Below, one piece after another: positions 25,420 to 26,770 of a DNA stretch of 26,770 bases. A model generated the notes under the pieces. The model was not told the DNA's origin. It saw only the letters and a list, made by a program, of their open reading frames with translations, and ran no database searches. Each line of letters begins with the position of its first letter. Position 1 is the stretch's first letter. The translations under genes and the position numbers were made by a program. Origin of the DNA: Promethearchaeota archaeon (GTDB taxonomy: Archaea; Asgardarchaeota; Lokiarchaeia; Sigyniarchaeales; SOKP01); contig SDNY01000046.1 in assembly GCA_004524535.1 (NCBI GenBank), positions 1 through 26,770 on the forward strand, read 5' to 3'.

Positions 25420-26770
25420 ATGATTGAAAATACTTTGGCTGTTATTGGGCTAAGTTGGGGAGATAAAATATCTGAAAACAGATTTTACCCTAGATGAAGG
25501 CAAAGGTAAGTTTGTCGATTTCTTAGCCCAAAAAGCAGATATAGTCGTTCGTTATGCTGGTGGAAGCAATGCGGGTCATTAAAATAAATCTCTTCGATTT
25601 TCTAGGCTAAACGGTTGTTGCCAACGGCATTAAGTATAAGTTTAAATTGATTCCATCTGGTGCTCCATTGGAGAAAGAGGTTGTTATAGCAAATGGATGC
25701 GTAGTAGATCCAGTTGTCCTGCTTGAAGAAATAGAAAACTTAAAAAACTTGAATAAGCAAGTCAATTTAAAACTAAGTAGCACAGCACACATTATTTTCC
25801 CATTCCAACGTGTTTTAGACGGATTAGAGGAAGAAGCGAAGGGAAAACATGCTGCTGGAACAACAAAAAGAGGTATAGGCCCCACATACTCTGATAAGGC
25901 CGCTCGTTGGGGAATTAGAGTCTATGATTTAATTAATCCTGATTTATTAAGACTAAAATTAATGAAATTATTTGAGCTAAAGAAGGCTCTTATTAAATCA
26001 TTCGATCCCGAATGGGATATGGATTTTGATATTCTTTTTGAAGAATATAAGACATATGGTGATATATTAAAACCTTACGTAATTGACACGGCATATTATT
26101 TGAATAAAGCGATAGATTCCGGAAAAAAAGTAGTTTTCGAAGGTGCCCAAGGTACTTTATTGGGGATAGATCACGGTATGTATCCCTATGGAACGAGCTC
26201 AAATGCAAACGCACTTGGAATATCTGCGGGCACGGGAGTTCCTTCTAAAAAAATTGGTAAAATTATTGGAATTGTCAAAGCTTACACATCAAGAGTTGGG
26301 GGAGGCTTATTTCCAACTGAGTTAACAAATACAATAGCAGAAAAAATCCGAGAACAAGGAAAAGAGTACGGTACAGTAACAGGTAGACCGAGAAGAGTAG
26401 GATGGTTGGATCTCTTTAATATCAAATATTCGATTATGATAAATGGTGTGGATAGTATTATTATCACACTTTTAGATGCTTTAGAAGGCATTAATCCACT
26501 AAAAATTTGTACGGCATATGAATTAGAGGGAAAGATTCTTGAGAGTTGGCCCATCCAATCAGAGATAATAGAAAAATGTATACCCATATATAAAACTTTT
26601 GACGGGTGGGAACAAAAAACTAGTGAAGAATGGTCTGAAATAGCAAAACAAGGTTATGATGCATTGCCTTTAACAATGAAAACATACATTCAATTTATAA
26701 AAGATGAACTTCAAACAGAAATCGCAATGATCTCAATTGGACCAGACAGGAATGACACAATAGTATTGGA
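25420..26770 (+). CDS. purA: Adenylosuccinate synthetase with two introns; exons 25420-25462, 25494-25579, 25611 to beyond the window end
   Basis: Joined product [60 protein letters not shown]...[14 protein letters not shown]...FEGAQG.LL.IDHG.YPY.TSS...[13 protein letters not shown]...[16 protein letters not shown]; exon 3 is open to the window end. Confidence 0.93.
25463..25493 (+). other. purA intron 1, 31 nt, BHB-like
   Basis: GGGG-AG^A-UAAAAUAUCUG-AAAA-CAGAUUUUA-CCCU-AG^A; removal gives TGG GGA GAT GAA GGC (WGDEG). Confidence 0.88.
25580..25610 (+). other. purA intron 2, 31 nt, BHB-like
   Basis: AGCAAUGCG-GGUC-AU^U-AAAAUAAAUC-UCUUC-GAUUUUCUA-GGCU-AA^A-CGGUUGUU; removal gives GGT CAT ACG GTT (GHTV). 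Confidence 0.85.

Follow-up and report, generated by a model that had tools for sequence, protein, structure and literature searches.

The purA gene (adenylosuccinate synthetase) of a Promethearchaeota archaeon (assembly GCA_004524535.1) lies at the end of contig SDNY01000046.1, of which positions 1 to 26,770 were analysed and are referred to as the window. The gene is interrupted by two inserts of 31 nucleotides (nt) each, and the second one is very probably a bulge-helix-bulge (BHB) intron that would be removed from the pre-mRNA by splicing of the EndA type. Judged by comparison with related sequences, insert 2 is real DNA that is kept under selection in diverged lineages and carries pair-preserving changes. 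Beyond the claims of an earlier note on this stretch, insert 2 is evidently a recent, lineage-specific gain and part of a genome-wide set of inserts of ~30 nt.

The genome under study (3.66 Mb, 30.4% G+C, 99% completeness) is named G000 in the following, the genome of a sister species G008, and a diverged JGI metagenome contig of 1816 nt L093. X1 denotes the probable source run and X2, X3 and X4 denote runs of three other studies, with contigs taken from Logan. The RNase P RNA encoded in the window (Table 1) marks it as archaeal. The closest purA loci among named genome records were those of Promethearchaeota, i.e. Loki-type Asgard archaea.

Position and geometry of the purA inserts

With its start at position 25420, purA consists of three exons and the two inserts (Table 1). 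Exon 3 matches the Pfam family Adenylsucc_synt (PF00709) with 444.8 bits over profile positions 38-416 of 416, and purA residues 338-386 are overlapped by positions 1-147 of contig C5. When the exons are joined, exons 1 and 2 supply the motifs GDEGKGK and NAGH, so that a full-length PF00709 protein with P-loop and the equivalents of Asp13 and His41 results. The N-terminus encoded by exon 1 could be aligned with more than 120 relatives. The intact PurA of the sister species (439 amino acids) aligned to E. coli PurA (1ade_A) with its residue 9 on chain residue 2, and because of this offset of 7, its D20 and H48 correspond to Asp13 and His41, which we take to be the catalytic base and acid of the enzyme, respectively. 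The Asp13 codon contains insert 1 or precedes it, and the His41 codon is immediately followed by insert 2.

Only one excision of 31 nt (25580-25610) restores NAGH|T; a shift by one base in either direction loses His or Thr. The excision that is fixed by homology coincides with the predicted BHB cuts after the second base of each bulge. The central helix GGUC/GGCU is fully paired (4/4) between the bulges AUU and AAA, the outer helix comprises eight pairs with one bulged G, and the inner hairpin has 3+5 pairs with one mismatch (A.C in the stem of G000). All twelve neighbouring registers (shifts from -6 to +6) reached 3/4 at most in the central helix. A score of 4/4 central and eight outer pairs was reached by 56 of 400,000 random pairs of genomic places 31 nt apart. 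The Asn-Asn and Val-Val codons that flank the site are inherently complementary. Z-scores of the minimum free energy singled out neither insert region, and geometry and comparison were relied on instead.

These findings bear out what the earlier note had claimed for this site. It had described a unique 31-nt excision giving H-T with cuts at AU^U and AA^A around GGUC/GGCU, an in-frame stop directly after the His of NAGHT (TAA at 25580 follows CAT), a good outer helix with an imperfect inner stem, and the correspondence of this His to His41 of E. coli PurA, whose position is confirmed by the alignment to 1ade_A. The 86-nt exon which it had placed between the two inserts has this length when the BHB register is used to cut insert 1, and 84 nt at the codon boundary.

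Conservation, distribution and gain of insert 2

Both purA inserts have a length of 31 nt, which is a common k-mer size, and an assembly or sequencing artefact such as a 31-mer graph error might be suspected. This explanation has practically no probability left and is refuted by the occurrence of insert 2 in Logan contigs from four runs, each belonging to a different study, which show two substitutions of their own. In addition, the insert is present with four substitutions in L093, and other inserts of the class measure 29-34 nt. The X1 contig (5883 nt) is identical to the window over 25300-26400. Contigs of X2 (25483-25819), X3 (25559-25844) and X4 (25521-25671) cross insert 2 with 0 gaps and differ from the window at 11, 7 and 4 positions, respectively. 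T25591>G in the hairpin loop was observed in X2, X3 and X4, and G25606>A in X2 and X4.

L093 contains both inserts at the same places, with no insertion or deletion over 240 nt, and its exon 3 protein is 87% identical. The proportion of synonymous differences between G000 and L093 (pS) was 0.47-0.49 and the synonymous rate (dS) 0.74-0.81. The ratio of nonsynonymous to synonymous rates (dN/dS) was 0.038 for exons 1 and 2 together and 0.098 for exon 3, the latter being a comparison that the earlier note had proposed. The inserts differ at 3 and 4 of 31 sites (four in insert 2) and change ~4 times more slowly than synonymous sites. These values show a constraint on the short upstream exons equal to that on the main body of the gene, and a stronger constraint on the inserts than on silent sites. 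purA is evidently under strong purifying selection in all three exons.

Alternatively, purA could be a decaying pseudogene with disabling inserts that are structured by chance. The in-frame stop at 25580, the stops and the frame shift in insert 1 and the unremarkable fold energies of both inserts would be in agreement with this. Nevertheless, such decay is very improbable and nearly refuted by dN/dS values of 0.04-0.10 in all exons across a dS of ~0.75 and by inserts whose rate of change lies below that of synonymous sites. L093 and three other studies retain both inserts, and no second purA was found with the purA query in the 99% complete genome, where only the contig-end overlap on C5 was detected. 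The statement of the earlier note that the rest of purA is intact to the window end, and that this argues against a pseudogene, stands, with 386 open codons and the low dN/dS ratios of both parts.

Equally improbable is a working enzyme made from exon 3 alone, or from separately translated pieces, without any joining. An open reading frame of 374 amino acids does start with TTG at 25647, but its product would be devoid of the P-loop and of both catalytic residues. Furthermore, exon 2 lacks a start codon, and exons 1 and 2, with only 15 and 28 codons, are under purifying selection.

All four differences of insert 2 between G000 and L093 fall in two pairs of the inner stem. Pair 25584:25601 is A-U in G000 and G-C in L093, and pair 25583:25602 changes from A.C to U-A. 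The central pair 25576:25606 is U.G in G000, C-G in L093 and U-A in the low-depth contigs of X2 and X4, while at the outer pair 25566:25621 a G-C of G000 corresponds to A-U in L093. Between the two full sequences, two pairs are changed on both sides and three on one side. In their alignment, 35 of 36 cells were paired in comparison to 25-47% in slid registers.

The distribution of the inserts was analysed in 123 purA loci with at least 330 aligned residues and at least 50% identity (109 distinct proteins; some genomes entered via two tools). No insert was present in 97 loci, insert 1 only in 24, and both in two, namely G000 and L093; nothing was found at AGH|T in the other 121 loci. G000 and L093 were sisters in the FastTree tree with a support of 98, followed by G008 without either insert as next neighbour. 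Given its absence elsewhere and from the next neighbour, insert 2 is a gain in the small lineage of G000 and L093. A mobile repeat was considered as its source and rejected, as no further copy of either insert was detected in the genome at up to six substitutions. An origin as a copy of insert 1 was likewise dismissed: the alignment score of 16 is too weak, since 270 of 5000 shuffles attained it as well, and so did 230 of 5000 31-mers drawn at random from the genome.

Insert 1 occurs in a patchy manner in 26 of the 123 Promethearchaeota purA loci, and 12 changes on the tree are required to account for the three intron states together. It has a central helix GGGG/CCCU, bulges AG^A and AG^A and an inner hairpin (central 4/4, inner 6 at shift -2), and an AGAT repeat at the site leads to five equivalent cuts. 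The site is occupied by 30-32 nt in 22 distinct sequences, with CUCU, CUUU and CCCC as variants of CCCU. In the alignment, 93.1% of the cells were paired compared to 84.5% in shuffles, of which 0 of 500 reached this value, and to 20-61% when slid. All inner pairs (4/4) have changes on both sides, and the hairpin pair G25474-C25479 of G000 is A-U in L093. The assignment of insert 1 as an HBh'-type BHB intron is well supported by this pattern.

Several observations weigh against insert 2 as a spliced intron. The motif is relaxed: its 5' bulge has 4 nt in the structure common to G000 and L093, one unpaired A stands between the inner and the central helix (before GGCU), and the inner stem of G000 includes the A.C mismatch. 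The register of the outer helix differs and is shifted by 3 in L093 (25564-25571 with 25616-25623), where a perfect 8-mer is combined with a 3' bulge that is not a clean 3-nt one. The folding energy is ordinary, with a z-score of -0.88 in G000 (34 of 200 shuffles fold as well) and -1.77 in L093 (9 of 200 shuffles as good). The carriers are two full sequences and three short contigs, and the covariation is not significant, with shuffles matching it in 59 and 109 of 500 cases. The variant contigs have a depth of only 2-4 and are each weak alone, even if the same letters recur between studies. Finally, no RNA run was among the listed sequencing runs that hold this DNA.

Short inserts in other genes and further features

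Open reading frames of G008 with at least 90 amino acids from stop to stop were compared with G000 by tblastn, and ~1,890 queries matched at 55% identity or more. The comparison covered 1.96 Mb (~61%) of the sister genome; the queries contained many shadow frames, and five 20-kb pieces were entered twice. From 26 short interruptions, four were rejected, leaving 22 inserts in 19 G000 genes with a length of 29-34 nt, 14 of them with exactly 30 nt. The 20 inserts beyond purA are located in 18 other genes and are all absent from G008. Three genes have two inserts each, namely purA, RNA polymerase A' (Rpb1 domain 1) and a gene on contig C32. When cut at a register that makes the product collinear with the G008 protein again, 17 inserts have a central helix paired 4/4 and five have one paired 3/4, while 4/4 was obtained in 2.6% of cases at a fixed random register. 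Flanking helices were weak in two of the 22 inserts (C52 and C115).

The intact G008 counterparts were assigned to the Pfam families Prismane/CODH, CdhD, RNA_pol_Rpb1, EF-2, UQ_con (two, E2-like), metallo-beta-lactamase fold and Ras, with the name for C161 coming from a paralogue and the other six from orthologues. Subunits of CO-dehydrogenase/acetyl-CoA synthase (CODH/ACS) and Ras-family GTPases are among the interrupted genes. The 30-nt insert with stops after GHFGH in RNA polymerase A' was present in four of 30 relatives' loci, i.e. L268 (G021), L272 (G006), L274 (G010) and L278 (G000), whereas the insert after DEDG was found in G000 only, among the relatives' loci compared. Split matches near the place of the GHFGH insert were also observed in G020 and G023. 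purA insert 2 and the GHFGH insert have the context GGUCAU^ and the intron strand GGCU in common, with unlike hairpins.

In the reverse search, 1209 and 683 open reading frames of G000 were used as queries against the same G008 DNA and yielded 2-4 unverified candidate inserts in G008. Candidates are located at C1 ~112065 (minus) and C22 ~94225-94257 (minus) of G008, e.g. 30 nt with a stop between LPWVLNHG and IWPHGTSW.

Candidates of the census that were discarded on inspection were a low-complexity repeat (C5:5877), upstream non-coding parts of stop-to-stop frames (C182:292 and C106:20352), a spurious frame (C63:10499) and an intergenic place (C135:16064-16100). C113:24838-24922 was discarded as well; it represents two neighbouring genes, separated by a stop, a purine-rich stretch and an ATG, where G008 has one fused frame of ~1150 amino acids. 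One- or two-base frame breaks at C173:16274-16313, C118:8201-8212, C168:17944-17946 and C123:~80029, in genes that are conserved otherwise, are frameshifts, sequencing errors or decaying genes and not introns.

ARAGORN predicted only 22 tRNA genes in the 99% complete genome, 13 of them with an intron and some implausible. This low count is in agreement with a heavy interruption of tRNA genes, which is reported for Asgard archaea. A repeat family was observed as well: the frame at C65:5509-5851 of G000 matches many tandem copies in C7, C2 and C9 of G008, and the translation of the repeated unit ends ...MTSGDLPSPQRSGRG.

Table 1. Features of purA and RNase P RNA in the window, and further inserts on other contigs of G000
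Feature	Position	Strand	Remarks
purA exon 1	25420-25462	+	Met1 to first two bases of the Asp13-equivalent codon at the BHB register; end at 25464 at the codon boundary
purA insert 1	25463-25493 (equivalently 25465-25495)	+	31 nt, HBh'-type BHB (predicted); stops and frame shift
purA exon 2	25494-25579	+	86 nt, 28 codons; P-loop EGKGK ... NAGH; last codon CAT, His41 equivalent
Outer helix h, 5' strand	25565-25573	+	In exon 2; pairs with 25612-25619 in G000
Central 4-bp helix H, 5' strand	25574-25577	+	GGUC, in exon 2
5' bulge AU^U	25578-25580	+	Predicted cut 25579/25580, after second bulge base; CAT stays last exon codon
purA insert 2	25580-25610	+	31 nt, in-frame TAA first; between His41 and Thr42 codons (E. 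coli numbering)
Inner hairpin of insert 2	25582-25603	+	3+5 pairs, loop 25591-25595
Central helix H', 3' strand	25605-25608	+	GGCU, in intron
3' bulge AA^A	25609-25611	+	Predicted cut 25610/25611; ACG (Thr42 equivalent) opens exon 3
purA exon 3	25611-26770	+	Open to window end; last few codons on contig C5
Archaeal-type RNase P RNA	1122-1448	-	119.2 bits, full length
Further inserts, two per gene	C17 ~472, ~338; C32 ~3639, ~3791	C17 -; C32 +	BHB geometry
Further inserts	C100 ~12034; C8 ~3086; C129 ~9460; C135 ~24697; C161 ~11879; C134 ~3701		BHB geometry
Further inserts	C52 ~18564; C115 ~18054; C144 ~21932; C74 ~9896; C103 ~14014		BHB geometry
Further inserts	C180 ~283; C123 ~17023; C181 ~1795; C138 ~12728; C16 ~3518		BHB geometry

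Splicing enzymes, proposed reaction and known systems

G000 encodes two EndA paralogues of 201 amino acids each, on C100 (107.9 bits) and C84 (70.7 bits against the endonuclease family), as well as RtcB (561 bits). The C100 protein aligned end to end with the catalytic alpha subunit of A. pernix (3p1z_B, E 7.6e-37), including K44 and R46 of the broad-specificity loop. The motif histidine of the C100 protein and the A. pernix subunit, presumably the catalytic one, is apparently absent from the C84 protein, as judged by eye from its sequence. In the available part of one source, K and R are placed in a Crenarchaea-specific loop of EndA, with K44 being needed to cut relaxed motifs (PMC3241643). 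An (alpha-beta)2 EndA with this loop is described for Asgard archaea, and, in the available text, only such enzymes cut hBH and HBh' motifs (PMC5829648).

From the motif and the encoded enzymes, we infer that the RNA is cut and rejoined with EndA and RtcB as agents. The four exon bases GGUC, just before the last two bases of the His41 codon, would pair with GGCU of the intron, while exon 2 and exon 3 would form the outer helix and the intron its own hairpin. This fold would present two bulges on opposite strands. A two-subunit EndA would then cut each bulge behind its second base (CAU^U and AA^A), and RtcB would join the exons to ...GGU CAU ACG GUU.... One purA mRNA needs two excisions because the first insert lies 86 nt upstream, and the same reaction at insert 1 would lead to an mRNA for full-length, active PurA. 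On unspliced RNA, translation would end at the UAA opening the intron.

It is improbable, to a lesser degree than decay of the gene, that the insert is removed or skipped without EndA, i.e. by ribosomal bypassing, by a different RNA-processing nuclease or by programmed excision of the DNA. A gap of 50 nt in phage T4 gene 60 is bypassed in translation. Like this gap, insert 2 interrupts a coding sequence and has a stop directly after the last sense codon, followed by a hairpin; in addition, the two ends of insert 1 in G000 carry matching GAT codons. However, bypassing in gene 60 needs matched take-off and landing codons and leaves the gap in the mRNA, whereas no landing codon that matches the take-off codon CAU of insert 2 precedes ACG. 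Where relatives lack the terminal repeat, their Asp codon is divided by insert 1 as GA|Y, and ribosomal bypassing is ruled out at this site because only RNA joining mends the split codon. Moreover, 31 nt is far below the size of group I or II introns. No near-identical contig free of the insert was found in the four runs, though contigs drop rare variants, and the cut positions fit the EndA rule in 22 of 22 inserts with at least 3/4 central pairs.

Splicing of the EndA type has a precedent in archaeal mRNA. The intron of cbf5, a pseudouridine synthase gene, was described by Watanabe 2002, Yoshinari 2006 and Yokobori 2009, and according to the last of these, pre-mRNA splicing in archaea was confirmed for cbf5 only and predicted for other genes (PMC2738675). 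As far as described there, the cbf5 BHB intron of Desulfurococcales and Sulfolobales is likewise short, lies in coding sequence and has a relaxed BHB at its borders; its hosts likewise possess an EndA that is hetero-oligomeric and of broad specificity, and the intron is patchily distributed, with gain and loss. In contrast to the cbf5 family, which occupies a conserved site in Crenarchaeota, the purA inserts occur in Promethearchaeota and would belong to the same mechanism class but to another intron family. purA also differs in having two introns per mRNA, a uniform length of ~30 nt and at least 19 interrupted genes in this genome, with splicing being predicted from the DNA.

Non-canonical tRNA introns of the hBH and HBh' types from Crenarchaeota and Asgard archaea have the same motif, cut rule and enzymes, according to the available parts of two sources (PMC5829648; bioRxiv 10.64898/2026.10.13.758758). 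The host RNA of purA is, however, an mRNA, in which excision must keep the reading frame and no tRNA body aids recognition. The census of the 2026 preprint covers, in its available part, tRNA genes only (bioRxiv 10.64898/2026.10.13.758758). In the PMC open-access and bioRxiv literature, a search for mRNA or BHB introns of Asgard archaea or Lokiarchaeota found only work on tRNA introns.

HAC1/XBP1 mRNA undergoes unconventional cytoplasmic splicing with a cut by Ire1 and joining by tRNA ligase or RtcB. Like the reaction proposed for purA, it is spliceosome-free and carried out by protein enzymes including a tRNA ligase, it removes a short mRNA intron at paired stem-loop sites, and the removal alters translation. 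A link of RtcB to splicing of this type is described (PMC8718801). Its nuclease is a different one, Ire1 and not EndA, and this splicing is regulated by stress. The kind of intron proposed for purA is known from cbf5; new are its occurrence in an Asgard archaeon, twice in one mRNA, the datable gain and the setting among ~20 such inserts per genome.

It can be tentatively suggested, as a possibility on the doubtful side, that the lineage is undergoing, or has recently gone through, an invasion of its protein genes by EndA-type introns of ~30 nt. Within the compared ~61% of the sister genome, 22 inserts are absent from the sister compared to the 2-4 unverified candidates in the reverse direction. 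Each intron has a 4-nt strand matching the exon bases just upstream of its insertion point, and the common context GGUCAU^...GGCU would fit a gain in which existing introns transpose or reverse-splice into places able to complete the motif. If true, this would be ongoing mRNA intron gain in an Asgard archaeon, core genes such as RNA polymerase, EF-2 and purA included.

Annotation that does not model such inserts would call these genes broken, frameshifted or truncated. As to the mechanism, the tRNA-splicing machinery would act on mRNAs routinely. Insert 2 is young enough for dating, and it would become testable, in the lineage nearest to eukaryotes, how protein genes gain and lose introns and how the sites of these are chosen.

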